Source: Patellaria atrata CBS 101060
Lineage: Eukaryota
Assembly: GCA_010093705.1 (NCBI GenBank)
Contig: MU006094.1
Coordinates: 1,029,550-1,093,549, forward strand
Length of the DNA stretch: 64,000 bases
Direction: 5' to 3'
Both the position numbers and the translations under genes were made by a program. This document shows, one piece after another, positions 4,777-60,600 of the stretch. Below the pieces are notes generated by a model, which saw only the letters and a list, made by a program, of their open reading frames with translations, made no database searches and was not told where the DNA came from. The number at the start of each line of letters is the position of its first letter. Within the stretch, counting starts at the first letter, position 1.

Positions 4777-7709
<2,933 letters not shown>

Positions 7710-15591: not shown

Positions 15592-15691
15592 NNNNNNNNN
15601 NNNNNNNNNNNNNNNNNNNNNNNNNNNNNNNNNNNNNNNNNNNNNNNNNNNNNNNNNNNNNNNNNNNNNNNNNNNNNNNNNNNNNNNNNNN
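15592..15691. other. Assembly gap (100 N)
   Basis: Run of 100 N following a poly-T tract. Confidence 1.
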
Positions 15692-35740: not shown

Positions 35741-35752
35741 GTATATAAACCC
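35741..35752 (+). promoter_or_regulatory. TATA box GTATATAAACCC upstream of the 35932 ORF
   Basis: About 190 nt upstream of an ATG in good context (caacaATG); same form as the TATA boxes in the 44-51 kb array. Confidence 0.55.
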
Positions 35753-35931: not shown

Positions 35932-36936
35932 ATGCCCTTCTCCCCTTTCCGCCGCAGACCCGCACCGCCCCTCTTCCCTCCAACATCCCATCCTAACGCG
36001 CAGGAGGACTCAAACGGCCAAACCCCACAACAACATCATCCCTACCATCCCCCCACAGGTCCCAATCCCACCTAGCTCACAACTCCCCATCCTCAGAACC
36101 AGAGCCAAGACAAAGACAACAACGCAAACGAAATTGACGACCCAAGAACCCTCCTCGCGCTCCCGGACGCAGGATCTCAGCAATCTTCCCCGTCGACAAT
36201 CCGTGCCAGTTCTTCAGGTGCCAAAGTCGAAGTCGATGTAAAAGTCAGGGATGAAGACGAACGCCGAACCGAGTACCGGACTGACGCGATCTTGGAACGG
36301 GAATCCCACCGCACCCGCACCCGGAACCAAAACTATATAGGCGCCAGGGCCTGGAACCTCTCACCGCGCGCGATTGTTCGGACTCCGGATGCGAGTGGGA
36401 TGGGTGGAACGGGGTTGGTGCCGTTGCGGGGAAACGACGTCAAGACGAGGGATTTCGCACTCAACCCAAGCACCCCCTCCAACCAAACCAAAGGAGGCTT
36501 CCCCCTCGGGTTCGAGACGCCTAACGTCGCGGTATCGGACCTCTCCGACCCCAGTAACCGGATGATCGAAAGCGCCTCCGAGCTTCGTAATGTGTCGCGC
36601 GGCCCTTCAGCAGCCAGACTAGCCGAAGATATGGTGGCGGGACGGGCGCTTGTGCTTATACTAGCGAAGTCGATACCGAGGATGGAAGTCCGACGTACGA
36701 ATATGGAGACGGGGACACGGTATATGTATTTATTCTCTTATAGTAAGGTTGTGGGGGTTGAGGGGTCGGTGAGGCGGAGGGGGGTGGGCGTTGGACGGGT
36801 TGAGTTGAGAGATGTTGGAGAGGGAAGGGGAGAAGGGGAGGTGGGTGGATGGACGTGGGGAGATGTCTTCATGCTGCTGTTGAGTGCGTGTTGTGTGTTT
36901 GTTGTTACGATTGTGGTGGTGAAGGTTTTGGGATAG
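35932..36936 (+). CDS. Hypothetical tail-anchored membrane protein (334 codons) with one in-frame TAG at codon 48
   Basis: Single frame from ATG 35932 to TAG 36934-36936, interrupted only by TAG 36073-36075. Hydrophobic C-terminus WTWGDVFMLLLSACCVFVVTIVVVKVLG. Confidence 0.55.
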
Positions 36937-39060: not shown

Positions 39061-40077
39061 TCAGTAATTGTCGTAATCCTCCCAACGTCCCTGACCAGAC
39101 TGTTTCTGGTCATGTGAAGGTTTATTGGTAGCACCAGCACCGTATCCTCTTACAGCACCTGCTAACGTGCTGAAGTTGCCACGGCCAGTATCATTACTGG
39201 CTCGATCGCCAGTTAATACATCGGCTGGCCCATTTGGACTGTTGTCGAAGGTATTAGCGAAATGAGTTTTGTCATGTCGTGAAGGGGAGCTTGTACCGCT
39301 ACCGCGGCGACGGGAAGTGTCATAACCGTCGTCATATCTGCGATATGATGCATATGCCTCGTTTGGATAAGTGGTTTTGGTCGCAGAAGGGACGGCACTT
39401 GGAGGAACGTATGTCGAACTGTATGGTGGATTGCTCGGAGGCTGGTATGCCGGTTGATTCACGGGAGATGGAGTATATGAGCTTGGAGGACTATAGCGAC
39501 GGGCAGCGCTAGACGGCTTTTCATTGTTAGTGGAAGATCGTAAATTCAAGATATCAGTGTTACAACTTACCTCCTGAGGATGTGACTGATAAGCTTGATG
39601 ATAGCCCTGAGTAGGATATGCTGATGGATATGAAGGGACTGGTGCCGCAGTCGGTGGTCGTCCGTATTCTGCTGGATTGTATGGTCGAGGTACAGCATAT
39701 GAATCCATGTTTGAAGGTGCGGCACCATATCCCTTGGTATTATGTCTACGCCCACGATCATAATCGGGGGACGAGTCCCTAGCATAGTCTGTCCTATGTC
39801 TCCTACGAGATGATCGCGCATTCAGGTCATCACTTTCGTGTCCAGCGTAATCGTCGTAATCCACTCGAGATGGTGGAACAGAGTTGTATCGTCGTCGATT
39901 GCTCTTATCACCCCTGCGATCTCGTTTGCCATCGCGTTTACGTTCATAGTCTCGCTGTTCCTTGTCACGTCTGTCCTTTTCCTTTGCTTTGAAATAACCG
40001 CCAGGAAGAGCCTCGAAGGCCTTGTCGGGGAGCTTTTCCACTCCGAGGGAGAATGCTTTTAGTACGAGGGCAGCCAT
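39061..40077 (-). CDS. Hypothetical low-complexity Arg/Asp/Tyr/Pro-rich protein
   Basis: 338-codon ORF with a probable 54-nt intron 39570-39517 (GTAAGT..CTAAC..AAG); TATA-like CTATAAAA near 40221-40228. Confidence 0.75.
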   Translation of the reverse strand: MAALVLKAFSLGVEKLPDKAFEALPGGYFKAKEKDRRDKEQRDYERKRDGKRDRRGDKSNRRRYNSVPPSRVDYDDYAGHESDDLNARSSRRRHRTDYARDSSPDYDRGRRHNTKGYGAAPSNMDSYAVPRPYNPAEYGRPPTAAPVPSYPSAYPTQGYHQAYQSHPQEVSCNTDILNLRSSTNNEKPSSAARRYSPPSSYTPSPVNQPAYQPPSNPPYSSTYVPPSAVPSATKTTYPNEAYASYRRYDDGYDTSRRRGSGTSSPSRHDKTHFANTFDNSPNGPADVLTGDRASNDTGRGNFSTLAGAVRGYGAGATNKPSHDQKQSGQGRWEDYDNY

Positions 40078-43000
40078 ATCGCCATCTAATAATCAAGAGT
40101 CCTTAGTATGGAGCGGGTTGGGATTGAAACCTAGGTGCGTGTGGGATATATGTGTTATCAGTACAGTGGGCTCGGAGAATCTGGTATACAGTGGGTTCGA
40201 AGTTAAATTCGAGGATGGAGTTTTTATAGTATGTTACCTTCCCAAGCTACTTCGACAAAGTTGCGTGCGAATTCTAACATGGACTTTACGAAGTTAGTAA
40301 TCATGTAGCATAAGTTAGGAGGAAGTGAGTGTACGTACTTTGATGAGTGAGACTTGAGAAGAGAAAGGTGGACGTAGAGATGAGTACGAGGATATATAAG
40401 CTTGTGGGTTAGTCGATGATCTCAGCGCACTGGTGTAGCAGTATCGTTAATTGAATATATGAGGAGTGAAATTGTTATTGGTGAGGTTGACGATTCGGGA
40501 CTTGTCGTGGAGGCTCTGAGTACGGTAATGCTCAGAAGGTATTAGCGCATGATCGCAAGTATGCATCATTGGTGGACTTGAAGGCGGTGAATCCCAAGTT
40601 AGGCTCGGCCGAAAACCGGCAGGAACACGGTTGGATGGTTCAGATGTTTAGGGAAGGAAGGACCTGCATCGCCACCGAATAGAGAAGGAGTGAAATGTAC
40701 GGAGAAGTCGTCTGACACTGGAAAACCTTCAATATGACGTAGGTAGGCTAAGGTTTAGGCTTGACCTTACAGTTTCACTACCTTTGGCTACGTACACCGC
40801 CTCCGACATGGAGCCAATGATGAGCCGAGTTAGAATTAGCGAAGATTGCCGCAAGGATTAAGCCTCGTCCATCTTTCTTTCTTATTTGAACCCGACCGTC
40901 ATCATCAAATGGAGAAATGGACGCATCTAGAATTACAACATCATTGTGAGGTGGCATTATTCCCCTGCTAACGTTCTGTACTCTCGAGTATAGAGAACTC
41001 GAAACTGTATAAAAGGGGGCTTGACCGTATTGTGCCAGACACTTGACCATACAAATGTCAAGGAAATCGTTTCTACTGCAGATTAATGCCGCGGACCGTC
41101 CCACCGTCCAGTAAGTAATTGCTCAAAAAATGCACAGCCGGGCGGGTAATGCCATTCGTGATAGCATATAGGATAATACAGATATGTGTTCCCCTACTAT
41201 TGGATATGTCTACTGGCTTCTCTCACTCATCATGAAAACCCCACATTCATCCCATCAATCCCCCACGGCATCCCATTCAAGCGGAAACATCCTCCAGTCT
41301 CCAGTTGACGGATGACATCGTCCTTTGACATTTTGCCTTCGAATCCATAATGTGTTTTAAGGGACGCGTTTATACATGGCCTGCAATACCGTAAACCACA
41401 CCCGATGAGATCAACATTGAATATCTGGCTGTCTGACATATCCCTTCTTCCACTATGGCATTTCCCCTCCTCTTGTTCACTTCGTCTACAAGGCCTGGCC
41501 AGCCCGGCTTGCTTGTACAGGAAAGGAGAGAATGTAAGGGTGACTCTGATAATTGGAAGACCTGAAATTGTTTCAACCCACTACTGTACGCTCACTCTCC
41601 AAATGGAAGGTTCTCTGGCCCTACTGCCCGTAAAAGTCGAGATCGTAGAAGACCTTCCAGCTGTACCAACCACAACGCCATACCGGCCCTAGATATTGTC
41701 GTTACTTCGGGCCTTGCAGTATGCGAGAATCTCTTTAGCAGGCATACAGATGCCGAAGAACTCCATTCTGACAGAGGAGAAAATATTTTAATGATGACGG
41801 CATCTCGTTGGTTATGAATGGACACAGTATGCTACCTCTGTACTTCTCCGTGCAGTAACACCAACGTCAACCTCTCACAGCATGACATCATCATACGGCT
41901 ATATCAGATCTCATAGGACTATTCTTCATTTACCAAACAGCATCTCTAAGTAAAGTGTTATCATAATTCTACCAGTAAAGACTCAAAATTGTCCTAGTGA
42001 GAATGCTACTGGTAATTTGGGATACCCTAAGTCCTCGATTGTATGGTTTCCCTATGGGATGCTTAGGTCAGCTTAGGTCAGTCAGAGTCAGTTACTGGAA
42101 TGAAGTCCACCTATAGCCCTCCCTGCTGCTCCTAATCAACAAGCGGCGATGATAATCCCCCCCATTACAGACTTTTTCTTTCTTCCTTCCTTCCCCTATT
42201 GAAGCTTCCGCAGGCTTCTAAAGCAACACCAGTTCGCCTTTACAATGATGGCGTAAGAACAGTCTAACTACGTCTAGTGCCATAGAGCAGTGCACAGTTC
42301 AAGTCAAAGTGATGAAATTGTATCAGTCATTTGCAAATAAATAGTTTCTATCGGGCAACGGGCTGGGCGCTGGGTTATGTCATTGGAATTTATAAGATCA
42401 CAAGGATATGCACACGAGTGCTACCTACAGTGGGCGAGCTGCAAACAGTCGTCGGGCATTTTCATATGGCTATTTAAACTGATAACCGCCAATGCAAATA
42501 TTTCTTTCAACTATCCGCTTTTCTCCAGTTCGGGAAGATATTCATTTCGCCATTGTGTTGCAAGATGGGGCGTTATAATTATTCGCTTGTTCTTACAACG
42601 TACTATTTAACTTGCTCAATCTCAACGAAAAGTTATTACCTGCGGCTGTTACGTGGAGAGTAGTATCACTATCTAGGTTTGTTGCTATTCATCAACACTG
42701 CGCGTTATCTATCTTCGTAGGTTACGCAAGCTCTACTCATGTGGTCCAAGAAATCGCTCCTAATTTGTCCTGCAAGAACAACAATAAGCTGAGATCGGAA
42801 TCTTGTTACTCGCTTCTTTCGCATTTAGATCCATGCTCCAACTCCAAGGCTTGTAAACTCAAGAAGTAAAGATTCTTTTATATCTAAGATCTGCCCTTTA
42901 GTCACGCAGGCCGGACCATCTGTCAAAGTCAGTTATGCGTTGTCTGTAGTCATCAGAACGGATCATCTGCTGTCTTACCGCTGAGGAGGCTATAATCACC

Positions 43001-44199
43001 TCCTTTTTGTCCAGACTCCCTCCTCTTTGAAATTACTCTCGAGGATACTCTTCAACTACGGGTTTGAAGCATCAGAATTCATATTTTCCATTCCATGTTC
43101 GCACATGATTTGGATCTGAATTGGGCTCGTGTCGGTCCTCATCGCATTTGGGCCTTTGGCTTTGACTATAGGCCACTTGAGAAAATACCCCTTTATGTTC
43201 TCACTCTAACTCTAGTGATGATGGATCGTACCACCATATGCTGCGAATACTCGTCAATATCTCAGTATTGTTCATACTCCTCATTAACTACCAGTGATAA
43301 TGAACTATATCACCGTGCTATCTATCTCTTTCCTCTTCTACTCCATCGCCTTCAAAGTATCCCCAACCCCCCCAAAATAGAAACGGAGCCAGAATACCCC
43401 TGAATCCCGCCATCCTCTCCCATTCGCAAATCCCGTCTTTGAGCGGGGAAAATTTGCAGGACGACGACTGGGCCTCCAATGACACCCTTTTATATCGTGT
43501 AATAGCCAACGAGGTCTTCCTTGCCCTTTGTTAATTCTCGTTTCGAATCTCAGTCGCAAAGTCTCTGGAGGAAGAAAGGGAGGCTGGGTCGAAGGGATGG
43601 TGCTTTAATACTAACATCGCGGTAAGAAATAATCAGGGTGGACGTGTCATCCACAAAGATATCTGATCACTTCCCCTCCAGTTCTGATGCAATGGTGTGA
43701 TCATTCACTTGCCGCCCCAGGGAGGAAGCGGTCTAGACATCGGTATATATATACCTTTCGCTCTCACCTTTGGATTCTCTAGCTTCTCTGTGCAAAATCC
43801 TCATATCGAAGAAGAACAGAGAGATAAAAGAAATATATTGGAATCTGTCGAGCAACGTTCACCGACGAAGGATTCGGCTTGCTTTCGCAGTGGAAACCAC
43901 GACGCTATTGCCTCAGAAGCGGGGAATCGGGCATTGGCGTTCGAGAGCTGGACGCCATTGGTAGGATGTGCGCAATCTCAAATCATTGGGTGATTATGGT
44001 CTTTGTTAAACGCCCCTATTTCAACTTGCTTTAACCTCTGCGGCATGGAGCGCATCGGATACCGGCGCTGATGATGCTCAACACTCAAACAACAATACAA
44101 TACTCCCCACCATCACCCTAAACTTCCCACCCTCCAAATCCTTTATATCTCCCCTATCCCGAAGCGCCAGGAATATCATAGGTGAGCTAGTGAATGGGG

Positions 44200-47100
44200 A
44201 AGCGACCACAATCATCTGGTCCAACTCTGGCAGCGCCCGAATAAGGTAGAGTTATTATTGAGGATACCGGCCCCACCCCGAAATAGCGGAGAAGCTTCTT
44301 TTGAAGCTCCGACGGTGGAAAATTGCATTTTGCTGTCTTTGTCCCACTTCTGCATTGAAGTGCAATGTTGCTGGTTCTGAGTTAGGTCTAAGGGGGAGGG
44401 AGGGGAGGGGAGGGTTTATATATCCCCGCCAATTGCCTTCGTCATCCCCGTCGCTATTCACTTTGCACGTGATGGGGGTGGGGATATCATGAGATAGATC
44501 TGTCTCTCGATCTGTGAGTATGGTAGTCTGATCCCCATTCCCTATGCACGTGGTAGGTGGTGGGGATGTCATGGGGTTATAGCCTATCTCATGTTTGGAT
44601 GGATGGATGGATGGATGATACTCCTATCTCATTGGCGTCGTATAACTTCTCGGATAGTGTAGTGTGCTACCGGATACTGATAATGCTAAGTATTTATAAT
44701 AGCAATGATGATTGTGATCGTGCTGATCATCGCCACAAACTCCCTGTCACGGGTTAAGTGGCTTGGATGATCCAGTGGCTTAGTCATACTGTACTTTAGC
44801 AGAACAGCATATGCTGTCTCAACACTTTCTTTCCTTAAGTTTGAGCTTCAGGTACATATAGCAATATACCTTTCAGCTTCCATCTGAGGTTGAGCCATAA
44901 CACTCCCCACCTGTATCGAGTTGTCTCTTCTCGTTTCTCGTACTCAGAAGGAAGGAATATGGTATGAGAATTGAGATAAGAGACTTGACAATAGTTGTAG
45001 TGTTTGCTTTCGTATCTGGACCGAGGTCTCCTCTATAATATAATCTTTTCGATGCGGTGGACAAGGACAATACCGCGCCGTCTTATTTAGTGTTTTGGCC
45101 TGGGGTGGATGGTTGTTGAGTGGAGGTGGAGAGTATGGGGAGGGAAGGTATAACAGGCTAGAGCCTAGTGGTATGGGTTGCCCTACATCCGAAGATCAGT
45201 CAGTAATATTTCCCTCAAACCTACCCTCAGACTCTTCTCTTCTTCTTCATATTGATTGTAGATAGCATCTGGACTAGATAGTTGGAACACAATTACTAGA
45301 GGCCGCTCACAGAAGGGGGTTATGTTTTTGATACTGGCTGCAGGTTAGGGGTGATGTCATGCTTAAGCACAAGACAACCATAACACAAGACAGTTACAGC
45401 ACAAGACAGTTATAGCACAAGACAGTTGTAGCACAAGACAGTTGTAGCACAAGACAGTTGTAGCACAAGAGAAGTAGAACACAAGATGTCCGTAATACAA
45501 TCCAACGAGAGCATAAGGCGTCCGTAACACAAGACAGCTATACCAAAACACCTCCTTACCACAAGGCCCCTTAACACAAGACAGTCATAGCACAGCATCT
45601 CCTCACCACAACATCTCCTTACCATGAAACCCCTTCTTACAATACAGCTATACCACAAGACAGTCTTAATACAAGAACGTCATATCCCGATAGACCTATA
45701 TCGTGAAATCCAAGCGTACAATCCAAAGGGAAAATATCAGTGATGCTCACCATCCCCAACAAGCAACAACACTCCTCATCACCTTCATTCCTATTTCCCA
45801 TCCTCAGTATTCCTTGTTCTCATCTATCCCGCCTCATCCATCGCCTCCCCTCACCTCCCCCCTCAACCCTCTACTATCCGAACAGCACAGCCCCCATCAG
45901 ATCCACGATCCCGAGACCACAATCAACCGATAAACTTAGCGCTTTCAGCCCACCCAGCGAAAAGGGGGGTGCGTGATGATGCTCTCTTTCAACAACTGTT
46001 AGTGGAGGAGTGGTGGGGATCATCGCCTCCCCTAGAGCACCTGGACAATCACACTTGACACTTCCATTTCCTCTCCTACAAGAGAATAATAAATCAAAGA
46101 TGTTCCGGGCAGAGCACCACAATGGACGCCTGTGATGATCTTGGACAAATGTCGGAAGTATTTCATACAGTAACCGCAATGATACTCCTACATGCAAAGC
46201 TTCAATTCGTGCTCGAATGCGAAGGGGATGATGGGTTTGAGTTGAGTCGAGAGCTGAGAAGGGGGTTATTCATTTAAGGTAGTAGACTAGAAGCTTCCTA
46301 GGGGGGTGGGAACGGGTCAGGAGGTCACTGTATGCATGTTTTTAACGGTCATAAGGGCTCAGGGGGGACTCTGGGAAGGGGAAAGGGTCGTATGTTAGTA
46401 ATGCTGATCATCAGCTAAGGTCATACCGGTCGCCGTTATGGGTTATATATCAAATCAGGGGATTCTTTCTTGTGTTGGAGTTGGAAAACTAACGTAGGTC
46501 AAAGACATGCGCCCCAGAGACCACAGTGCGTGAACCTGATGAATATTTCAGCCGGGAAATAGGTTCGTTCTGCTTCTCTGATCCTAATCAGCTGCTTGCG
46601 TTTGTTCTTCTCGCAATTGAAGTGGATGGCTAGTTTCGAGCTTTGAGTTAAAGGAAGGAGGTTATATACTCATACTCCATCCTTCTTCGAGTCATAAGGC
46701 TACCTGTGGCATGTGATACTGTACAATCGCCGACGGAAAACCGGAAAAGGGGTAATATATTGGTGCGGCCCAGCACCTACGAAAGATGATGGTAGTGATC
46801 ATCATCCTCCATGAATATTCGCACTTCTGTCTTCTTCCTTACAGTACCGAGAAAAGGCATGGACGATACGGGGTCCCCGAGACGACAATGCGTTGCGTGT
46901 ATGTTTTTTGGAGCAACGAACCATCAAGATCTGAACTCCTCAAGCGGTCCAAATCCAAATTAATCGGACTTGTTGCAACATCACTTGGGTATTGAGAGAT
47001 TTTGGTTCTCAGTTCGAAGTGGAAGAGAAGGGTTTATATACCCCTAAGCTCCCCTTAACTTCCGAATTTGGGGACAATTATGATAGAGTGACGTCACGAC

Positions 47101-50100
47101 GTGAGAGCGAATATACACCTGTGATACTCACCATCTACTAAAGATAATGAGGATATTATTTTTCCTTCTCAAACACTCCATCCTCTAGGTTCGCTTCTAA
47201 CTTCCTAAGCCTCCCAATGAGAGTAATGATATTGAATTGGAGCGGCGCTCCAGAGAGCGGAGTGGCTTGTTCTCAGCATCCTCAAAGAAATCCGTCAACG
47301 CTTTTGGTTTTCCAACCCTGAACCGTATTCAGTGAAGTCTTTGTATCTTGCTTATCATGGAGTAAGAAGCAGTAATGTTAGTTTCTCAGTTGAGAGTCAA
47401 AAGGCAAGGGGTTTATACCTAAGTTTTGGACGTCCCTTAGCACTGATGTCATGAAGAGATCATTACACATGATTCAGGGGTATTTTAAAGGGGTAAAAAA
47501 AGGGGGTAAAGGGAACAGACCGTTAGAGTATGGGTGAGATATTGAAGATGCTCAATGTCTGTCGGAGGTAAATATGATGATTATCATCACTCCATTTATT
47601 TAGTTTCCATCTTCGTCCAGGAACAAATCTAATACTTTCCCTCAGGATTTGTTGGTCGAGAGCTCATAAGAGAGTTGATTGGTTTTGGCGTCCGAATCTC
47701 AAACAATAGATTTGATCTTGTATCTCAGGATTCGTGAACTTCACTTCATACACGGAATAGAATACTGGTTTCTGAGTTGGAAGCGGAAGACCGGAGGAAG
47801 GATTTATATACCTCAACTTCCCCTTCCGTTGGCATCACGGTCATATCGGGATATTTCGAACACATAAGACGCGATCCCACAACCAATCCAATGAAACGGT
47901 AGTTGTGCAGGCAATACCAACGCACCAAGCAAGCCCTGGGGGATGTTGTTTCTAAGGTGAACGCCTTACAAAGATGACTTGATATACCCGACATCTCTCT
48001 TCTATTCAATATCACGAGATACTACAGCATGTCGGGCGATAACGATAGGAAAGGGGAACATGCGGCGATGCTGCGCATTTACCTCCAACAGAGACGGTGA
48101 TTACCATCGTTTCAGACTTCTACTTTCAGAATCGCTGCATACCCAAAGCCTCTAACATGGTCTCTCGGAGTGCTTATCTCATCCCATTTCCCACCAATAA
48201 TAACAGGAACGGGGTGAAAGCAGAACGTCAGAATGGCTCTGTAATGTGGAACCAATTCTTCATCGCGACGTTATCTGCGACTTCTTCTTCCCTTTAGATT
48301 GTAATAGAGGATAGGTCTGGGTTTGTTTGAGGTTTAAGGGAAAAGGGTTTATATATCCAACATTCCCCCTTCATCGGCATAACTGGACCATTTACGGCAC
48401 GAGGTCTATGAATGCGCAACAGAACCGTGAGAACTGCTAAATCCCAACATCTATTGAAAACGGAGTTAACAGTTATCATCATCCTAGACTTCTCAGTGTC
48501 GCGACCATTTTCATATCCAGAACGCCCATTCAGTCTCCAAGTGCTTATCCCGCCCTTCACACCCAATAGGGTTAGACGTATGATCGTATGAGAAATGGCC
48601 TAGCGTAACAGACTCTTCAAGTGCAGCCAGAATGATCGAGATAGAACTCTAGCATTTGCTCTCGGTATGTTGGAGTAGAAGATGGATTTCTGAATTTGAG
48701 ATTAGGGGAGAAGGGTTCATATATTGATGACCTATGCGGTATTATGCATGGCATCACGAGATATACAGCATATTGATCTATGCCTCGGAATGCGGTAGAA
48801 AGGGGTTTCTCAATGTGGTGATGGTGAGTATCCGCCATTAGAGATTACGGTTGTTATGATTTCCAACTGATCGCTATCAAACCTTTCTTGCATTCACAAG
48901 TCCATAAGACCCCTTATAACGTAAGGATTCATAGGTCGAGCGACCACAATAACCAATACCCTGATACGGGTTCAGACACACGCCGCACACCAGAATACTA
49001 GATGATGATTTTTTTTAAATCCTATCCGTAATCTTTACGTTCCAAGAACATCTTCTCACGGCCGAGGTTGAGGTGGATGCTTTATATTAAACGGAGAAGC
49101 TGTGAGAGAACAGTTTATATATTCAGATCCATTTTCCCCGTAGGTCACGAATTATATGATGTACCCCATGTGGTTAACCCCTGAGCGTCCAGCAGTCACA
49201 TGATCGTTATTCCTTCTATCTTGCAGCTATAACAGAGATCTCCTTCTAAGGTTGAACATTTCCCATCTACTCAATTCACGAACCTTCAGCAGGGTTAAAA
49301 GGTAGAACACCAACAAGGCCCCTCTTATTTCGCGATTCTTAACTTCGATTTGGGTGGAACAGAAAAAAGGGATTAGCTTATTCGGCCGACTTGACCCAAC
49401 CAACATTGGCTTCTTTGAAATCTATGGATAGATGTTCCATAAACTATCCCAATGACCGGGGAGTACCACTACCACCTGAAGATAATCAACGCCATCACTA
49501 TAATCCCACAAATACGCAGTCAGGGAAAACATTTTTATTCTGAAATTCAACTGAGAGAAATTCCCAACGGTGAATGTTCCATAAATTCTTCATGTAGTGC
49601 CAAACAGCCAATTAAGGAAAGGTGCTTGAGCATGACCAATTGACTGGCTCGAGTATAGGTTAACCTCTCTCACAAGGTCGAAACAACTTGAAATGAAGTT
49701 GGAAGGAAGCTAAGGGATGAAGCTATATACCCTATCCTTACCGCAGTTGACCGCCTCATGCACCCACCCTTTCCCGTCATAAGATCCCAACCCAGACTGC
49801 CAGAGTGCAAGTGATACAGTTGGACTTCTATTTAAGTAGTTCTTCCTTCTGATATTCAATTCATTCGAAGTTCTATCCACCACTTTGCTCTACTTGGGAT
49901 TTCCGATAACGGATACGTTTCGCCTATTGGAGACCTTAAACGGCGCTGAGCTGATGACAGAGAGACACATGCATAGTACAGCAACGCAGTAGTATAGACT
50001 CAAGGTAGCTATCATCATCTTCCACTGAGTATTCTATCCGGCGACTCATATTGCCTGGCTAAACTTGGAACCTCAAGTGTGTAGGATATTGGCTCCACGC

Positions 50101-51650
50101 CTCACAATCTCGTCATTTCATGGTTCCGATTTTCCTACATATGATTTCCAAAAAAAAAAACGAATTGATCGCTTGTCAGATGCTTCCAATCTCATCTGAG
50201 TCTTGTTGGTTTCCCAGTTCTAGAGGAAAACCAAAAAAAGAAAAAAAAAAAAAAAGTGAAGAGGTGGTTATCTATACCCCTACCAAGCCCCTTACAAGCT
50301 GTCTAACGAGCGCAGAACATCAAGTGATATCCATCCCACGGCGCTGTACGCTTATACGTCATGGAGGTAATGACGACTAAGTTATCTAGGTCAGCTGGAT
50401 GGAAACTTTGGTAATAAAACCCTCTTCCATTAACCTTTAGCTCTGTTTAACTGCAACTGGAATGCTTCGTGAATTGCGTACAGCCGCCGAGAGATCAATT
50501 CCGAGCTCTTAACCCAACAACTATATCAATTGGGAGGAAGGTTCTGCTCTGTCTAACTTAGACGTGTTGGTTTTATGGCAGAACCTCTCCCTAGTCTTCC
50601 AGAAAAGGGGATGGTGACCATCTACTCTTGGTAGGATTGAGTGCGCTCACCACGGATTGACGGTGATCTCCCCTAGTACTCAAGCGAAACGCTTATGAAT
50701 TAAGTTTGGTACGAATGATAAAGGGTGAAATCAAAGTCGCTCTAACCCGGATATTATATTCATAAATCACTGCAAGCAACAACGAGCCCACAATGTGGCA
50801 TGTACAATGACGATTAACAAAGCACCCCCGGAGACTGTTCGATATGTAGTTGCAGCAGTCGTCGTAGAGGAGAAAGAGGAGGGATTTAAGTAAACCAAAA
50901 TCCTGCTCACAAACTACCTGCTCACCCATAGGAACTGACCTCGCTCCTATGACGTGCTCAAGCGATCATCTTCTGCCTAAATCTTATCATACGCATCTTC
51001 AAGCGTAGTAGTAGATAGTATTTAAGACCTTTCAACCGGAGACCACTTCATCTGTTCAACAACAAAGCACTCGGGAAAGATTGCATATCTGATAGGTTCT
51101 ATGGAAAATTTGGCCGGTTGGAACCGTAGAATAACCAGGAAAGAAGATTGTTCTCCGCGGGTGTCCAGAAAACACCTTCATTTGGAGAGGGTTTACCGTT
51201 TATCGTGACCATAGAACATGTGATAGAAGTTCAATCGAGGATTGATGATCAAAAAGACCAGCGAGTATTGATGGTCAACAGTACCAGCTTGGAGTGATGA
51301 TAACTTCCACGCTTCCGTCTTTTTAGACCTTATGGTCTAGAGTGATACGCCAGACCTGCACGGACCTGCCTGGCCATCTTATGAGAAATATTGGAGCCTC
51401 CAGAGCATCAGAATGGAGTACCATTTCAATCAAGCATCTGGCAGGTTTATTCATATCCTCCAAGAGCAACAACGAACGAATAACTGTTCTCCTAGATAGA
51501 TATTACTTCCCATCTTGGAAGTAAGTCCACTGGAGAAGAAAAGGACAGCAAAGAACAAGAGAACGGTGGGTTTTTACCCCTATCCGCAATTTTGAATAGA
51601 CTACGCGCCCTGTACCCCCCCAGTAGGACTCATTCACCGGTCATACATTT
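44200..51650 (-). repeat. Degenerate tandem array of promoter-bearing units (370-400 bp period in the core 46.1-49.2 kb)
   Basis: Plus-strand pattern GGTTTCTSAGTT-like, purine tract, GGGTTTATATA(Y)CC-like, recurring near 44412, 45148, 46263, 46660, 47030, 47408, 47800, 48345, 48713, 49113, 49721, 50266, 51568. Pairwise similarity is visible elsewhere in the units, e.g. 48011-48115 vs 48753-48866. Confidence 0.75.
45367..45675. repeat. 16-bp minisatellite (CACAAGACAGTTGTAG), degenerate towards the right
   Basis: ACAAGAC core recurs at 16-nt spacing; near-perfect over 45384-45470. Confidence 0.9.
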
Positions 51651-54600
51651 CATGGGCAATTCCCGGAAACGTCAAGAGTCACGTTTGCGTCCGTAGACTC
51701 CCGCAACGAGAATATAAGTCAAACTTCTTCCTCTTCCTCTCTTCCAAATCAAGTCCAAGTCCCTCCTTTTAAGTTCAACTCCCAGTAATCACTCTTCCGT
51801 TCCCCCGTTGCGTAATTGGTCAATGTCCGCTATTTCCTTTGTCGGCTATCCTATTCAAATTTCCTTACCAGTCTATGTTCGAATCCTATCAACACCAAAC
51901 TTCTACGCGGCGGCGAAACCCTTTTTCTTTTTTTCTTTTTCCTCTAAGATTTTATTATTTTTAAGTATTTTTATTTTTTGATAAGGGGAGAGCCGGATTT
52001 CATGAGATGTTGTTAGTTAGGGTTAGGTCTTTTGTATAGTGGCGTGTTCTATGAACACTCCCTTTTCCTTTTTATACTCTATATATTCCTGTACAATAAA
52101 TCCCCGCTACCATGGGTATCGGAAGATAATTATCACACGCAAGGGATGTAGGACGGTTTGTTCGACCCCCCTGCTCGAGTACAGTACAATTGCACGGTAC
52201 GTTCCACCAGGAGTGGGATAAGTGAGGTATGTGATATGGATGGACAAGATATTAATCCCCTTACCGCCTTAGACGAATCCGAAGATACGTCACCTTCTGC
52301 ATATCTAAGCGTTTCTCAACTGTACTGCTGTAGCGACTGAGATTTTGTTACAGCTCTTAGTTGTGGAGCGCGGAGATGAGATCCGCGTAATCGAGATATT
52401 GGATCATGGTATTCTCTTGTGTAAGAATGCGTCTTTTCCTTGATTTGGAGAGACTTGTTCATCTCTTCTATTTCCCAAGTCTTGGGAAAATTGTTGATGC
52501 TGATAGCTGATATTATCGAACGCTGGAGATGGTGACTATCTTTTGCCGCAATTGATTAGCGGAAACGTTATGAGATAGCCAAGGCTAATATCATTGAGAT
52601 AAATGGGTCGAGGCGCAAGGATCCTTTTGGCCTTACAAGGAGCTATTGACACTAAAAAAGAAACGCGAATCTGATAGTTTCTAGTTGCCTAATAGCGCTC
52701 TTTCCGAGATGGAATTAGACCGGATCGGAAATTGTCTTCTCAAGATGGACTTTCAAAGTCTAATGTGAGGAGATCTTATAGCTCTAGATATCCCTGAGCA
52801 CAACCCGCTACCACACTCAAAAGTCATTTGACATCGCCAGTCCCTTAGGGACTCGCTGCTCACCTACAACCATGCATTAGTATCATCATAACCTTAGCCA
52901 GGGGGTATAAAGCCCCTCCGTCTACAGCATCAATCCCATTACAGAAAGCCAGAAACGTTTCAGTAGTCCGGCCTTCGTACGTGTTCACAACCATGGATGT
53001 GACGCTGACTCACTGTGCCGTTCTACCCAGATGGAGAAAATGACTAAAATAGGGCAGTGTCTTTCACTTATTGCTTTTTTTGGTGTGGAGCGGAGCCCGA
53101 AGTACATGAATTAGGGAGGGCAGTTGAAGGAGTGTGACTGGGTTTTTGTTCGTGGACTGGATATTTTTCTGTTATGCGCTGGTGGGTATGAAAGACCTTA
53201 TCTGAACAGTCAAAACAATGATGATGATGATGACGATGACGATCTCAGAGTAGTAAAAACAATCATTGTCTACATCCATATATGGCGAATATAAGTGGCG
53301 AGACCTACGGTATATCGACTAGCGGACTCCGTTACCAGAAAGAATAGTCGTGACCTCGCCCGGAACAGACAACCACTCTATGCGGTTCACTTAGGACGAG
53401 GAGAATCGAGGAACTCGCTCAGTTTGGTCAAAGGCCCTCCACCTTTGAAAGAATCATAAGTATAATGATGTTCGGCTTTGGAAAGTTCTAGACCTACGGC
53501 AAGAGAACCTGGCTGCGCGGGGTTGCGTAAGGATAAGGAGCTATGGCTACATGCGATTTCATGTATGGCCTCTACTGACGGTCATCATAACAACTAGCCC
53601 CTACTGTAAGATCATAATAGGCCTCGATCCGGTCAGGTATACGATTGCTTACGTATCGCGTTCTCAGTCGATTATAATAGTAGGGGGGGCTAATGCTTAA
53701 GTTCCCCAATATCGGCATCCTGAGTGCAGTTATGTGATGGCGAAGGGGATTTCTGCAGAATCGTGCATCCACAACCTCGGGGTATAGTGGAATGGAGTCG
53801 AAATTCCATTGTCCGAAGCGCCTTCTAGAAAACCACAAGCGAAGTGATAAAAATAATGGATGAAGCCATAGATGCCATCACCGATTTTGTAAGGTCTAAG
53901 CTAAGCTGTGCGAGGTGGATAATGGCCTGACAATAATCTGTTTCATAAATAGATTGATTAAGGACGTAAGGAAGGACATCTACTTCTAGAAAAAAGGGTC
54001 CTGGATCTGAAAGGAGGATTATATCAACGAATCAATTGTATCGAGTCGGTCTGATGGAACTCATCTAGCGATTAGTGGAACCATTGTAAAATAGAGTATC
54101 GGACGACGGTAATGTGAGATAATGCCTGGTGCTCAGCGCCTAGTTCTTTCATTGTCACAGCATTGCTCACTTACTATACATTCTAAGGTAGTATTTGACT
54201 CCCCCGAATAACATAGTAGAAAATATGAGAATGGGGCCAAACCGAACATATTGTTAGACCGTGAAGATAGTCAAAGTTAGTTGATAGTCGGACTTATCAG
54301 CGGTTGTTCGACACGTGTAAAGAGACTGAGTAGTGTCAGCCTTGACGAGTGAGGATGGACACACTTCCAGTTGTTGAGTACTCAAATGAGTTATCTCAGT
54401 TCGTTGGACTCCGCTTCAATTATGTTACTTGATTATCTGTTACAAATCAAACCTTGTAAAGGCTTCGAAGCTGCACCGCATATCTAGCCGAACCGGTGAA
54501 AGTACATGCGTAGGTTGGATTGTGGTAGGATTTTTTGAGAGCATTAGAAGCTCGTACCATTGAATTGATAATGGTCAAAGATATCATCGACGATTGCAAC

Positions 54601-57600
54601 ATTGTTCATAATGGCTGTAAGAGGGATAATTGAAGTATCACATAGATTTGCTGTGCAGACGATCGTGGCATACCTGCATTACCCTGAAATCACTCACTGC
54701 GATAAGGTTTACTCTCTTGCAATTTACAAACCACAAGTTATTCTTTATTCTTCCCGATTTTCAGAATGGTGGGAGAAGTCTGGTACTCGTAGAGTGACCG
54801 CTCTTCTCGATCTCAATGTCAGTACTGACCATTACGGTCTTCGTCGTATTGCGAGAGTGTATCGTATTGTAGATTATCCGGAAGACAATTTTGAGGGCGG
54901 GAAGACGAGCAACCGAGAAATATGAACACTTTGTCCTGCATGTATTCCGTAATACATGGTCGTATATGTATGAGAAAGAAGTCAGTATTTACAATAAGAC
55001 TACTAGATTAATCGACCTTTAAGCTGGGGGATGTTGGCCTTAACCACGTTTCAACAGCTGCTCAGCGTAGATCTCAACCGCCAAATTGTTGACTCGAGCT
55101 CCATCCGCATGCTTGAGGATCGGGTGATATCATCCTTGAAAAAGCATAAATCCAAACGTCGTCATATGCGGCTGATTAACGTCCTCTAGAACCAACGAAA
55201 ATCGCCATGCTGTGCATGCGAGGGCACTGGGATCATAGAATGGATACTAAATCAGGGCCACAAACTGTTGACCTGATAGTTAGAGGCTTCGGGGAATTGT
55301 TGCTGCAGCATCCTGTCCGTATGCAGCGGACTGATAGCGGTGACGTGAAACTCGGTGCTACTGGTTAAGCTCGTGGCGAATTACTCCGGGACTGGCGCGG
55401 AGGCAGCATGTTACAGTGCGCAAGTGATCATTGGTTTCTTAGTCGCGGTGACGAGGCGGAGCATGTAAGCAGACTGATCTGGACTGAGTAGTATTTCATG
55501 AGACTTTCGGTAGAACTATGGAGTGTACCCGTGGTTTCAGGAGAAGTATAGGAATTTTGAGATTGGTTTGTGACCCTAGAAGAACCCCAAAATCTCTAGT
55601 TACATGGAGACTGAAGGGTAGATCCTTGCCTTGTGTGCTTCAATTGCCACATACACGGTTTTCAATGCGTAGTCGTCGCATTTTCCTACGTCAGTTCGGA
55701 AGTATATTGGCCGCAGATTGAAGATGCAGCGGCAAACTTGTGCCACATGCAACCGGGGTCCTTTTGTCTGGTAGTTATGGACAGCATTGTTCAGTCGTAA
55801 TGAATTTGAGTGTCTCAATTTCCCATGCTAGGATATCTGTACGGTGTTGTCCGTTATGTAGACTATGATCCACGGTTAATTCTAGATAGGATGGGGTTGT
55901 ACAGAATAACCACTACGTGAAAGAATGGAGTTTTGCACAAGAGGACAGTAGCAAGGTTGGAAAGACTTCACTCCTCCTACATAAGTCTAGGATTCGGGAC
56001 GCGCAGTACTCGTCGATCAGAACCGGGGTAAAGATGAATCTCCGGTTTGCAGATGAGCATTAGACGCTGCTGCTAGATAAGCTACAAGCATGCGAGGGGT
56101 TCTCGAATAAACTTGCGAGCGGCGGGTCGAAATTGAGAGAAATTGCTTGAGTTGCATACTTAAACAGCGGTCTGCAAGTCACAATTAGCTATAGGGGTAG
56201 GGCCTGACAGAATGTTCAGTTCCTTTGGGTACACATCCTTTCTACCTACCTAGAGATTGTTGATGAATTAAAGTTTATGCTGAAACAGAGTACGATGCAG
56301 TCTGTACGTCTAAGGGACCTGTAGACATATGGTAGCAACAATGCCTGTCTGCGGAGGTTCCGATGATGATTATGGGTCCTTGTATACATTCAGGCGGATA
56401 TGATTAGATTAGTCTTGAAGTCTGGGTTTAGTTTCTGAAACATACCCAATGATTTTGCAGACCAGGTGTTCAGTTCTGACAACCACCGTTTTTGACGTCA
56501 GGATGCCAACCCTTGGCCCTGGAAAGAATCTGTTTGGATGATTTTGTGAAATAAACGTAAGTAAATTATCTGTGGAGTGGCATCCCTCACATTCGTGGGA
56601 TGGACAAGGGGCCCTGAGAAGATCCACTGCAGCTGTTTTTACGAAAATCTCAGCAGCATGGGTTTGATATGTATCGGCATCCAACCGATGGGCCGAATGG
56701 CGATCGATAAGGGAGCATTTATTGAGCGTGCTATAGTAGTATTCTGTACAAGTCCTCACTACCGTAGTTCTACTCTAGCTTGTCTTGCCGTAGTTGAAGC
56801 AAGAGCCTGGGTACGCATGTGCACTATTGATGCAGAGTGAAGCTCGAACTGCGAAGGTCACCGTCGGCCGAAAGCTCAAAATCACGACTCAAGAGAATTA
56901 TTGTCTGTGTAGGGTTAATCACCAAACTGAAATCGTTGAAACTAGTTGACTTTGAGCAACACACCGAGGACCAGGATGCGATGCGCCACGTTCTTCTTTC
57001 TCTGAAGCGCAAGCAGATGAGCTTTTTGTCTTCGTGAGGCTAGCACGGCCAGGAAATGTGACTCCGTAAGATCTGGGGCTTGGCAAAAGATAATAATGGG
57101 AGTGAGATCGGTTGGAATTGCTTGCTGATGCTGATGAGATCTACATATCAGGCCATGTATTTGGACTGTCTTTGACGCATAATATTCCCTTCGGAGTATT
57201 GACTGTAAAGGGAAGCCGCCTAAAGGTCGGTAGGCATTTTGCTGAAGCCTCGTGGGAAGAGCGTAGGGATTGCTGCCCGTTTACGAGTGCCGCTCCCGCC
57301 GTTGAAACTTGGGGGATAACCGTTTGGGACTTGTCATGACCGTTTTAGGGAAGGACCCCTGTTGGCGATGAAACCCATCCTTGTTTTCGATGTGCGCGCA
57401 TCCCGCGAATAAGTGACAATGATGCAGAGAGGGCTGCATCTCGGAAAGTCAGTGTGATCCAACGGAGTGGAAGAAGATTTACATCCTAGAGTCATATTAC
57501 CCTTCAATTGGGCCGCTCACAGACCAAATGCATTTTATCCAGGGCAAAATCCTTTTCATGGTTTCGTAGAGGATTTGAGTTTGCTTTGACTAGAGTCACA

Positions 57601-60600
57601 GGACAGAGGCGTAAACGGAAATGAAAAAGATACACGCCTTCAACAGGTGAACTGCATGATTAGCACGTCAGTAACTGTTATAGGATCCCGTGGCCTATGG
57701 TCCTTCTGAGCTCAACCGTGGGACGGATATCAGAGACGGCGAGACGCATGATTATCTTCATCTTGCGTCTATCCTGAGGTTGGAACCCGTTAGGGTGAAT
57801 ACGTAAATACGGGAACAAATGAATTGCGTGCAACGCATCAAGCTTAAAGCTTCGGTGAGGTGAGCTAGGATAAAAGATAGTAGAGGCCGATATATCGAAA
57901 GTCACTATTGGAATTTCCAATTATTGTACAAGCGCGTACGTGTATGTATTGTACGATCACTGGTCGATAGATGATGTGATTGATGAGGAAGGCCTAGCCG
58001 TGCTAAAGAACGGTAACAAACGGCATAGAAGCTTCATGGAAATGATAAAGTTCATGTGTGCTGTAACTCGTCTATAAGTCTATAACAGAGATGATATGCT
58101 GCGAGGATAGCCTGCTAGTGCGGTAATATCTAGAAATCCTTCTGTTGTTACTTGCGCAGTTGCGATCAGCTCTGAAAGACTCTTTATCAATGAAACATTC
58201 CGATTGCAGATTTGAAGGCAAGAATAATTGATAGTTCCGCAGTTCGATGCTCTCAAGAAAGAAAGTGCTTAACGTCGTAAGGAGGATTCCGTCGAGCCAT
58301 GGTAGCCGTGATTTGAATATATTGCGACCTCGTCATCCTCAGATTGGTGCTATTGCAGGTCTGTGTGTTGAGGATAATATTGCCTGCTCCCGGGCCACAC
58401 AAGGAGATTAACCGCACCCAATAGGTGAGACTACCGGCCTCACCTACAAAGAATAATAACCCAGGAAACCAGTACTGTTTGAAAGGCTGAATACGGTGAT
58501 CACAAGGAGGAATGCTGCAAAGATGGAAGCGCAAGGAGTTTGAAGAGCGCACAGACACCACGGACAGATATCAGATTGATATGAAAACAACCAATTCCAA
58601 TAATGAATTCTTCAACATGGGGATATTGAACAAATGTTGTATTTTTCTCACATACAAAAGTCTAGACCTTGGGAAAATGAAGAGAACAGGACGACTAAAG
58701 ACGAAATGACGGCAGGTCGGATCGTGAGCTCGGAGAATTTTGGCATCCACTGATTTGCTAGCAATATCATATAACGAACATTTGCTCGTTTATGATAATC
58801 GATAGATTGTTGCCGGTGGAAGTTTTGTACCGACACCCAGTGACGGTTTAATGGTGATTGTTACACCACCACAGGAGAGAGTACGCTCTTACGTTGTATC
58901 AGCGTACAACATCTCTGTTACATGAAGACCTATGCCAGATGATTACTTCCGATGATGTGCTGACAAGGCATGCGAGGCATGTAAGATTCCCTTTCACGTG
59001 AAGACGATGCCATAGACCAAGCGTGGGATTGGAGCATCGATTTTCCAAACCGCGAGACTGGAAACCAATTTGCAAGCACACCAATCAAAAAAATAGATAG
59101 TGCATAATCTGCAGATCAGCCTACAGAGCCCTGGGTAATAATGAGCTCAGTAGCCTGCATTTAACACGTCGAGGGTGTAAGATTGTCGCAGGACTCTAGA
59201 TTGTAGGAAGAGAAATGGCGATACATGAAAGAAAAGTTAGGAAGCGGCTACCGATAGCCTAGGAAAGAAATTGTCCGTAGTGAATACTGTACGTCGAAAA
59301 GTAACTGTGTATATCCATGAATTTCATGAATCGATTATTAACATTCATGAGAGGTGTTGGCATGAAGAAGGAGGCCCATGAAATGAACCTAGAAAGATGA
59401 AGGAAAGTATGATGATTGAGCTAACGAGATAGCGGTCCCACTTGAGGATTATCATTTCAAATTATCCTATGGAAGAAAGGGATTTCTAGGATTCTAGGGA
59501 GTCTTGCGGGCGGGTGATGCCAGGTGGAAGGGAACCGTGGCAAGCGTGGGAGGAGACGCATAATGGTGAGGGTTAGGGAAGTCAGGATGAGGGTAAAGTA
59601 GTAAGGGGAGATGATGAGAGGAAGCTTAGGAAAAATGGCTCCTCTAATCCTCTTGGGGGTTTTCTTGGGCTTCTTCGAAGTTTCTAGACGCTTTTCTTGC
59701 GGGACCTGCTCTAACCGAGAATGATCGGCAGCGTGATCTACACCGCGGTCTTTCCCGCGCTCGTGTTCCGTTGTGTGAGAACTAGTTGAGCTTGACCCGA
59801 GTTCTATCATGGATGAGCCTTGAAAGCTCTCCCGGACTGGCTAAGCACACGAGCAATCCGACACGATATCCGTTACCTTGGGCCAACGCGCACTAATAAT
59901 TACCGTGAGTTGACTTTTAGGTTGTTATTAAGGTAACGTATTCAACGTGATTGATCGTCTCTTTGTGTACCTCCATGGGATAGATTCTCCTTAGTCCATA
60001 CTCCATAGTTCTACGTCGCCGACTATGTTATCATGTAACTCCCATTTTGGTAAAATCGTCGCTTTACCTCATCCATACAATATGATATGCGCTTCCCAAA
60101 ACGGCTTTACCATTGTTATTGCTTGCGACAACGAACGAAAAGAGAGTATTGATTTGACCTTTTCTGGTCTACCCAGTGCCACGGTCTGTTTCGCGTACCG
60201 ATCCTCAAGCCTCGTGCAAAATGGTCTAACAAGTGGCGGGATCGGTTAGAGGACTTCTCATCTCCACCGTCGCAGACTGACGTCCAACGTGCCGGATCGC
60301 TATCTCATCCAAGTTTATTCCCACTGTGACCTGAGACTGCGCAGCCAATCCAAAAATATTCATATTATTTGACACTGCGCTTTTAAGAGAAATAATAGAT
60401 CTTACTTATAATATGCAATACATGCCTGCTGGAGTGGGGCATGCTCCTGCAGAGCGGACGAGTCTTGACGAAAACTTGAAATGTCCGAAACAGAACAGTG
60501 ATGCGATGCCTCATAAATGCAAATTTTACCGCCGATTTCATCATTGTACTGGATTGAGAGTACTGTGCTGTATGTATGTACAACTTATTGAAGGGCCTTA

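Follow-up and report, generated by a model that had tools for sequence, protein, structure and literature searches.

In a 64,000-nucleotide stretch of contig MU006094.1 from the Dothideomycete Patellaria atrata CBS 101060 (the whole of which we call the window), a reading made from the sequence alone had pointed to a hidden tandem array of short, promoter-bearing units on the minus strand. Our analysis indicates that a promoter-bearing unit of ~380 bp was very probably amplified here head-to-tail long ago, with seven contiguous units forming the core of the array. The bodies of these units are now close to saturation, and one element alone, an 11-nt TATA box, is demonstrably conserved far above the body background. 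We favour, at a probability of roughly 0.45, the reading that these TATA boxes have been kept by selection and would start short, non-coding transcripts whose sequence is unconstrained.

An old array with a conserved TATA box

The homology of the units was addressed with several kinds of search. All-against-all comparison with nhmmer (128-kb search space) links seven units through alignments of 270-342 nt with E-values (E) of 1e-7 to 1e-2, the hub being u47040; searches with single units recover their neighbours over ~300 nt (E 1.5e-7 to 6e-4), and the matches of an iterated nhmmer profile are confined to the minus strand at 44330-49143, with none elsewhere in the 64 kb. When 90 tiles of 400 nt from 40-58 kb were compared, ten non-self matches were found at E<0.01; eight lie at 46.6-48.9 kb, and a minisatellite is involved in the remaining two. 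Transitions account for 48% of the differences in aligned columns, as against the one third expected from noise, which fits true homology. The most similar units are neighbours, and the copies stand at different stages of decay. The check for periodicity and unit alignment that had been proposed from the sequence alone had a divided outcome: the unit alignments are significant, but Tandem Repeats Finder reports no period near 380. Nor is this a homogenised satellite, for which we looked for a clear monomer period; there is none at ~380, and the mean pairwise identity of the units is only 0.43.

The array is shorter than had been claimed. Since neither of the units proposed at 49721 and 51568 resembles any unit significantly, whether by profile, single-sequence or pairwise comparison, since the one at 50266 is a borderline case (its 283-nt match to u47040 has E 0.05) and since the outlier at 45148 falls within a dispersed high-copy repeat, the supported array comes to seven full units and one promoter copy, in place of the 12-13 units counted in the sequence-only reading. 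With a profile of the promoter only, four sites that had not been used in its training (50293, 49744, 51586 and 47997) gave E of 0.56-3.6, and unrelated TATA sites at 35739(+) and 43721(+) did no worse. The unit placed at 46263 keeps its position, as a remnant, and has lost its TATA box. The idea of an old ~380-bp tandem amplification thus holds for the seven contiguous units recovered by nhmmer and fails for the length first given to the array; the patches said to be shared by unit bodies, GATAAGCACT near 48170 and 48540 and ATCTCGTGAT..CCCCTTTC at 48011 and 48753, are present.

Given this homology, conservation along the unit could be measured directly. The seven units were aligned with MAFFT, and the 310 columns with at least six residues were scored in 11-column windows by mean pairwise identity. 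The best of these windows is exactly TATATAAACCC, with an identity of 0.76 compared with 0.43 overall, and the next best reach 0.52-0.54. A value of 0.76 was reached by none of 5000 column shuffles and by none of 60 controls that were shuffled and realigned, in which the best window stood at 0.53 +/- 0.03 (highest 0.61) and overall identity at 0.38. In a coarser test against shuffles, promoter segments (-30 to +50) scored z=25 and two body segments z=3-5. The uniform decay across the unit that the sequence-only reading had set against its own proposal is not what we find, the TATA box standing at 0.76 and the columns elsewhere at 0.43; that the promoter has been preserved better than the body is borne out for the TATA 11-mer, but not for the CT tract or the initiator-like motif, which do not rise above shuffles.

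Two neutral causes of TATA survival were considered. Outside the box, columns with an A or T consensus average 0.437 and those with a G or C consensus 0.398, so that base composition does not explain the conservation. Repeat-induced point mutation (RIP) is marked by a TpA/ApT index above ~0.89 and a (CpA+TpG)/(ApC+GpT) index below ~1.03; across 46000-49200 these indices are 0.74 and 1.17 and the flanks have the same values; RIP was rejected as a cause on these grounds. Secondary blocks picked out by eye (GATGATGAT, TAGATGGTGAGCATCAC, CCCCTT/AGGGG words that look like stress elements, and a GTGAGA resembling a 5' splice site) were left unused, as they are not above realigned shuffles.

The setting of the TATA box within each unit is that of a core promoter. 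TATA-like boxes with pyrimidine tracts on the minus strand had been described from the sequence, and they are present at eight positions: a TATATAAACCC-like box followed by a pyrimidine tract of 15-30 nt is found at 49121, 48723, 48355, 47810, 47417, 47040, 46668 and 44422. TATAWAWR is matched strictly in five of the eight units (49121, 48355, 47810, 47040 and 44422) and missed by a single base in the remaining three (48723, TATATGAA; 47417, TATAAACC; 46668, TATATAAC). The pyrimidine fraction, taken between the TATA box and the initiator-like motif or over the following 11-30 nt, is 0.73-1.00 in all eight units, and the 20 nt after the box are at least 75% pyrimidine in seven of them; AACTSAGAAMC is found at 9/11 positions or better in five of eight, 26-39 nt past the first T of the TATA box. 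These features are concentrated in the array: TATAWAAMCC occurs five times in the window where 0.36 occurrences are expected, four of the five lying on the minus strand at 44.4-48.4 kb, and of the 12 sites on either strand of the 64 kb where a TATA box is followed by 20 nt of at least 75% pyrimidine, seven are in the array on its minus strand. The same TATA-pyrimidine composite stands upstream of two ordinary genes of the window, at 40398(-) and 14340(-).

The order and spacing of the elements equal those of TATA-type RNA polymerase II (Pol II) core promoters of filamentous ascomycetes, as represented by xylP of Penicillium chrysogenum, for which the published account gives a TATA box 34 bp upstream of the start and a pyrimidine-rich tract between the two, with 8% of the activity left after mutation of the TATA box and 22% after mutation of the pyrimidine tract (PMC9703631). 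Judged by its sequence, with both a TATA box and a pyrimidine tract, the array block matches a fungal core promoter of this type. It is unlike xylP-type promoters in being repeated eight times at ~380-bp steps with no recognisable gene behind any copy.

Two further sites of this kind lie outside the array. An TATATAAACC box at 35742-35751(+) lies ~190 nt upstream of the ATG of a proline-rich open reading frame (ORF; 35933 onward, to ~36936) that has no Pfam match; the same TATA form had been reported ahead of an ORF near 35932, and the box was found there, its likeness to the array being limited to the TATA core (profile E 0.048). A palindromic TATATATATA with a plus-strand pyrimidine tract, at 43744-43751, faces the array, with a plus-strand promoter-profile E of 0.02, and may be a convergent promoter.

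Layout of the array and its surroundings

The host region is fungal, encoding a fused ARG5,6-type protein (4978-7626+), a GH76 hydrolase, an amino-acid permease, a MADS-box factor, a DUF1690 protein and, at 37.1-38.3 kb, a histidine phosphatase, with further genes beyond 58 kb. Inside this otherwise gene-dense region, 40000-58000 is an 18-kb gene-poor stretch in which Pfam-recognisable ORFs are absent: at ~40-58 kb no ORF of at least 90 amino acids has a Pfam match at E<0.001, the best being a chance-level 0.0057 at 40781-41122, and outside the array the same 40-58 kb contains no internal repeats at E<0.01. The ORF flanking this stretch, at 39061-40077(-), has a sole database relative, P0001, with 93% identity, which is recorded as a hypothetical protein of Patellaria atrata.

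All eight promoter copies have the same orientation, and the core units are 366-400 bp long with the exception of one of 545 (Table 1). The eighth copy, ~2 kb downstream of the seven-unit core, was matched by the profile at E=0.0028 prior to its inclusion (iteration 2), and pairwise to u47040 at E 0.03 over 100 nt. Between this copy and the core, decay and insertion are both evident. The remnant that directly follows the core has lost its TATA box (AATGAATAACCCCC) and retains the CT tract and AACTCAAACC, and there are GATGAT/GGTGAGCATCAC-like patches near 46020 and 45750. Degenerate copies of the minisatellite extend to ~45700, and the minisatellite directly adjoins the dispersed sequence, where summed contig depth rises to 3,500-31,000 compared with ~310-480 in the flanks (10-60x; two DNA runs) and where contigs break, leaving loose ends at 44804-44902, 45145 and 45312. 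No second copy of this sequence was found within the 64-kb window; the array has probably received an insertion of a dispersed repeat or solo element here.

Table 1. Coordinates of the array and associated features in the window
Feature	Position	Strand	Basis or detail
Array core, seven contiguous head-to-tail units	46270..49181	minus	pairwise nhmmer, single-unit and iterated searches, tile scan
TATA boxes of the core units (first T)	49121, 48723, 48355, 47810, 47417, 47040, 46668	minus	start-to-start spacings, in order: 398, 368, 545, 393, 377, 372
TATATAAACCC of hub unit u47040, representative of the conserved element	47030..47040	minus	11-column window identity 0.76
Initiator-like AACTGAGAACC	47004..47014	minus	26 nt past the first T of the u47040 TATA box
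Equivalent initiator-like sites (starts)	48696, 47778, 47391, 44383	minus	
Truncated, decayed sub-unit within the 545-bp unit (GGGTATATCAAG.. CCTTAGAAACAAC)	47811..47990	minus	by reading; promoter profile E=1.4, not significant
Remnants of one or two further decayed units	45700..46269	minus	by reading; weak profile matches, E 0.3-0.9; pairwise E 0.2
16-nt minisatellite interrupting the array, AGCACAAGACAGTTAT on the plus strand	45366..45486		~6.6 clean copies; Tandem Repeats Finder score 154
Insertion with dispersed high-copy sequence	44807..45314		read depth, contig breaks
Outlying eighth promoter copy: GGCGGGGATATATAAACCC, 28-nt C/T tract, then AACTCAGAACC	44365..44452	minus	TATA first T at 44422
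47-codon ORF with stop behind the 44422 promoter, longest first ORF	44212..44355	minus	unsupported as a gene
Stretch claimed for units 49721, 50266 and 51568	49182..51650	minus	array membership unsupported; promoter profile E 0.56-3.6

Other features of the window include an assembly gap of 100 N at 15592-15691 and, near the upstream end of the array as first claimed, CCTAACCCTAAC (two telomere-like units at ~52010-52030 on the minus strand) and a 23-nt A/T homopolymer run (50233-50255), which are probably there by chance.

The search for a product

We could not identify a protein product for the units. ATG codons are present at the positions named in the sequence-only reading (44355, 47338 and 50195), and the first ORFs behind the eight promoters have 2, 9, 9, 11, 12, 13, 25 and 47 codons. 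Among 88 stop-to-stop ORFs of at least 35 amino acids on both strands there is no Pfam match at E<0.01, and all ten ORFs of at least 60 amino acids that begin with ATG are missing from the protein collection searched. Self-similarity at the peptide level does not differ between the strands, amounting to seven weak pairs on the plus strand and four on the minus strand, confined to the translated promoter, and the profile consensus has no open frame. A family of small protein-coding genes would be recognised by a shared ORF, peptide similarity or homologues, and we find none of these. An apparent spacing in multiples of three nucleotides from the aligned start to the TCTCGGGG patch, seen in three units, was too weak and was not used.

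These results bear on the proposal, also made from the sequence alone, that the units encode micropeptides. One short, fast-evolving peptide per unit would sit well with the ATG found 55-70 nt past the TATA box in most units; against it, the first ORFs of the eight units share no motif, signal peptide or CAAX end, no frame-specific conservation was found between units, and no peptide-level signal was seen on either strand, so that hypervariable micropeptide genes are a very improbable explanation of the array and conserved ones find no support.

The longest first ORF, of 47 codons, belongs to no Pfam family, is missing from the protein collection and has no candidates among longer proteins. 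It has a lone library match, to P0002 at E 1.8e-5. P0002-P0009, which derive from metagenome and NCBI records, have three conserved blocks of 11-12 amino acids separated by variable stretches of 10-11 amino acids, with a period of 64 amino acids; back-translation shows the three blocks to be three frames of one nucleotide repeat, and these entries are thus translated arrays of the CRISPR (clustered regularly interspaced short palindromic repeats) type, not proteins. P0002 was consequently rejected as a homologue, being a repeat-inflated chance match to a mistranslated array. The repetition of these entries inflates HMMER scores and can fake homologues for short queries. An identity as Amu1/Par32, considered on account of an RGGAG in this ORF, was also rejected, since the ORF has a single FRGGAGI, no repeat and no Pfam match; in that family the GRGGAGN motif is present in several copies (PMC4501750).

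A conserved RNA product fared no better. Rfam gave no match at gathering score in the array, the best sub-threshold one being archaeal sR2 (E 0.38, 45735-45786), and no tRNAs were found there. Putative transcripts (+28 to +250) compared with dinucleotide shuffles have a mean fold z of -0.3 in sense and +0.6 in antisense orientation, so a shared RNA structure is not borne out. A cluster of box C/D small nucleolar RNAs, in which a C box (RUGAUGA) goes with a D box (CUGA) and a terminal stem, was considered on account of ATGATGA-like words in several units and rejected, there being no paired D box or stem by eye and nothing in Rfam. An array of spliced-leader RNA genes, whose copies would all have a nearly identical leader exon with a GU and an Sm site after it, was rejected as well: the leader sequences differ between units, over the 30-40 nt past the initiator-like motif, a GT is aligned in ~5/8 units, and there is no consistent Sm-like site.

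What the array may be kept for

The main rival to selection on the promoters is that the array is dead: a small gene consisting of a promoter, a short leader and an ORF of ~50 codons would have been amplified and then decayed to pseudogenes, with at most the copy at 44422 still alive. Much of the layout is as such a history would leave it, with bodies near saturation (0.43 compared with 0.38 in realigned shuffles), early stops in every unit, three remnants without a TATA box, a repeat and a minisatellite inserted, and all of this located in an 18-kb stretch without a Pfam-recognisable ORF. An ATG or near-ATG recurs 55-70 nt past the TATA box, and the terminal copy retains its 47-codon ORF; that ORF, however, is without a homologue among 1.84 billion representatives once the artefact is set aside, and we estimate that a stop-free run of this length is expected by chance in ~1/8 units. 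What neutral decay leaves unexplained is the TATA box itself, at 0.76 compared with 0.43 in a contrast that no control reproduced (0/5000 and 0/60), and for which neither base composition nor RIP accounts. We regard a dead array as possible, if somewhat unlikely.

The two remaining alternatives have a low probability. The conserved block might not be a promoter, or not only a promoter, TATATAAA with its U/C-rich tract serving as a 3'-end signal, or the units might be read on the plus strand from a near-palindromic TATATA. TATATA is identical on both strands, and yeast 3'-end formation employs a UAUAUA efficiency element and an A-rich positioning element, while two unit bodies are crossed on the plus strand by stop-free runs of 69 codons (46786-46995) and 82 codons (48049-48294). 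Read on the plus strand, however, the box is TATATAC, which makes a poorer TATA, and purines come after it in place of the fungal-type pyrimidine tract, and the ORFs there have no peptide similarity beyond the translated promoter and no Pfam match, the four that were checked being missing from the protein collection; this reading we consider improbable. It seems equally improbable that the units are a satellite drawn from a mobile element, that is, a long terminal repeat (LTR) or other promoter-bearing terminal region that was tandemly amplified and then decayed. A unit of 370-400 bp with an internal TATA box does resemble an LTR, a dispersed repeat sits inside the array, and tandem repeats derived from parts of retrotransposons have been reported for plants (PMC3648361). 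Yet the unit profile finds no further copy in the 64-kb window, the units have no similarity to the dispersed repeat, and TG..CA ends, a primer-binding site and a polypurine tract were not seen by eye, with no formal search for them. Moreover, read depth across the array is single-copy, as in the flanks (~330 and 483 in two DNA runs), so in that genome the unit does not form a high-copy family.

The reading we prefer, selection on the TATA boxes, starts from an ancestral mini transcription unit of ~380 bp that would have been amplified head-to-tail long ago and is now nearly saturated. The difference between 0.76 and 0.43 appears to be best explained by purifying selection on binding of the TATA-binding protein (TBP); if so, most units would have been active promoters through most of their history, and their transcribed parts unconstrained. 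Each unit would still bind TBP and start a short minus-strand transcript, perhaps of 200-250 nt, with no constraint on its sequence, and what the array is kept for would be the activity of its promoters or the act of transcription, through local chromatin, effects on neighbouring genes or a supply of short non-coding RNA, and not a conserved product. A more specific form of this proposal, in which the array is a selected fungal promoter array of at least eight autonomous TATA-driven mini-units and what matters is either promoter firing (loading of TBP and Pol II, chromatin, interference with neighbours) or the unconstrained RNAs, is doubtful at present.

Several observations weigh against selection on the promoters. 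In at least three remnants (47990, 46269 and ~45880) the loss of the promoter was tolerated, and the array has taken in a dispersed repeat and a minisatellite, from which it follows that constraint is not uniform across it. The CT tract, the initiator-like motif and the GATGATGAT and CCCCTT patches (0.52-0.54) are not above realigned shuffles; CCCCTT is common to seven of the eight units, and shuffles attain this too. The conservation of the TATA box is judged from one genome and one locus, and TATATAAA could act in some other way, for example as a yeast-type efficiency or positioning element for 3'-end formation.

Comparison with known systems places the array between several of them. It is like birth-and-death tandem arrays of genes and pseudogenes in having head-to-tail copies on one strand, neighbours that are most alike, mixed stages of decay and internal insertions; in decaying pseudogene arrays, however, all parts are expected to drift alike, whereas here the 11-nt promoter element stands at 0.76 and the remainder at 0.43. 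The 21U-RNA (piRNA) loci of Caenorhabditis elegans and the arrays of spliced-leader RNA genes are made of mini-genes in which the upstream motif is conserved and the transcribed part varies, and the present array resembles them in its conserved promoter element in each unit, its variable bodies and its many units in one orientation; it differs in that its units are ~380 bp long and few, and in being recognised from DNA sequence alone. The intergenic spacers of ribosomal DNA (rDNA) contain tandemly duplicated spacer promoters for RNA polymerase I, and here too there are tandem promoter copies upstream of nothing obvious; unlike those, which lie inside rDNA, this array is surrounded by ordinary single-copy genes, and its signature is TATA-type Pol II.

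We know of no mini-gene arrays of the 21U-RNA or spliced-leader kind in fungi, and our literature searches (on Patellaria atrata, on fungal TATA-box or non-coding tandem arrays and on small-gene duplicates in Dothideomycetes) returned no description of such an array. A metagenome scan for TATATAAACCC N{10,30} AACTSAGAAMC found six loci, which we estimate to be about the chance number, and none of the six has a second unit or a significant profile match beyond the search pattern.

A dead array would be a commonplace relic of tandem duplication, and the chief lesson would be that very old repeats missed by standard repeat finders can be recovered by profile searches. If the TATA boxes are indeed selected while the bodies drift, the array would be a natural example of promoters that are maintained for being active and not for a product, and a counterpart, in a filamentous fungus, of the mini-gene arrays in which a conserved upstream motif is joined to a variable body.

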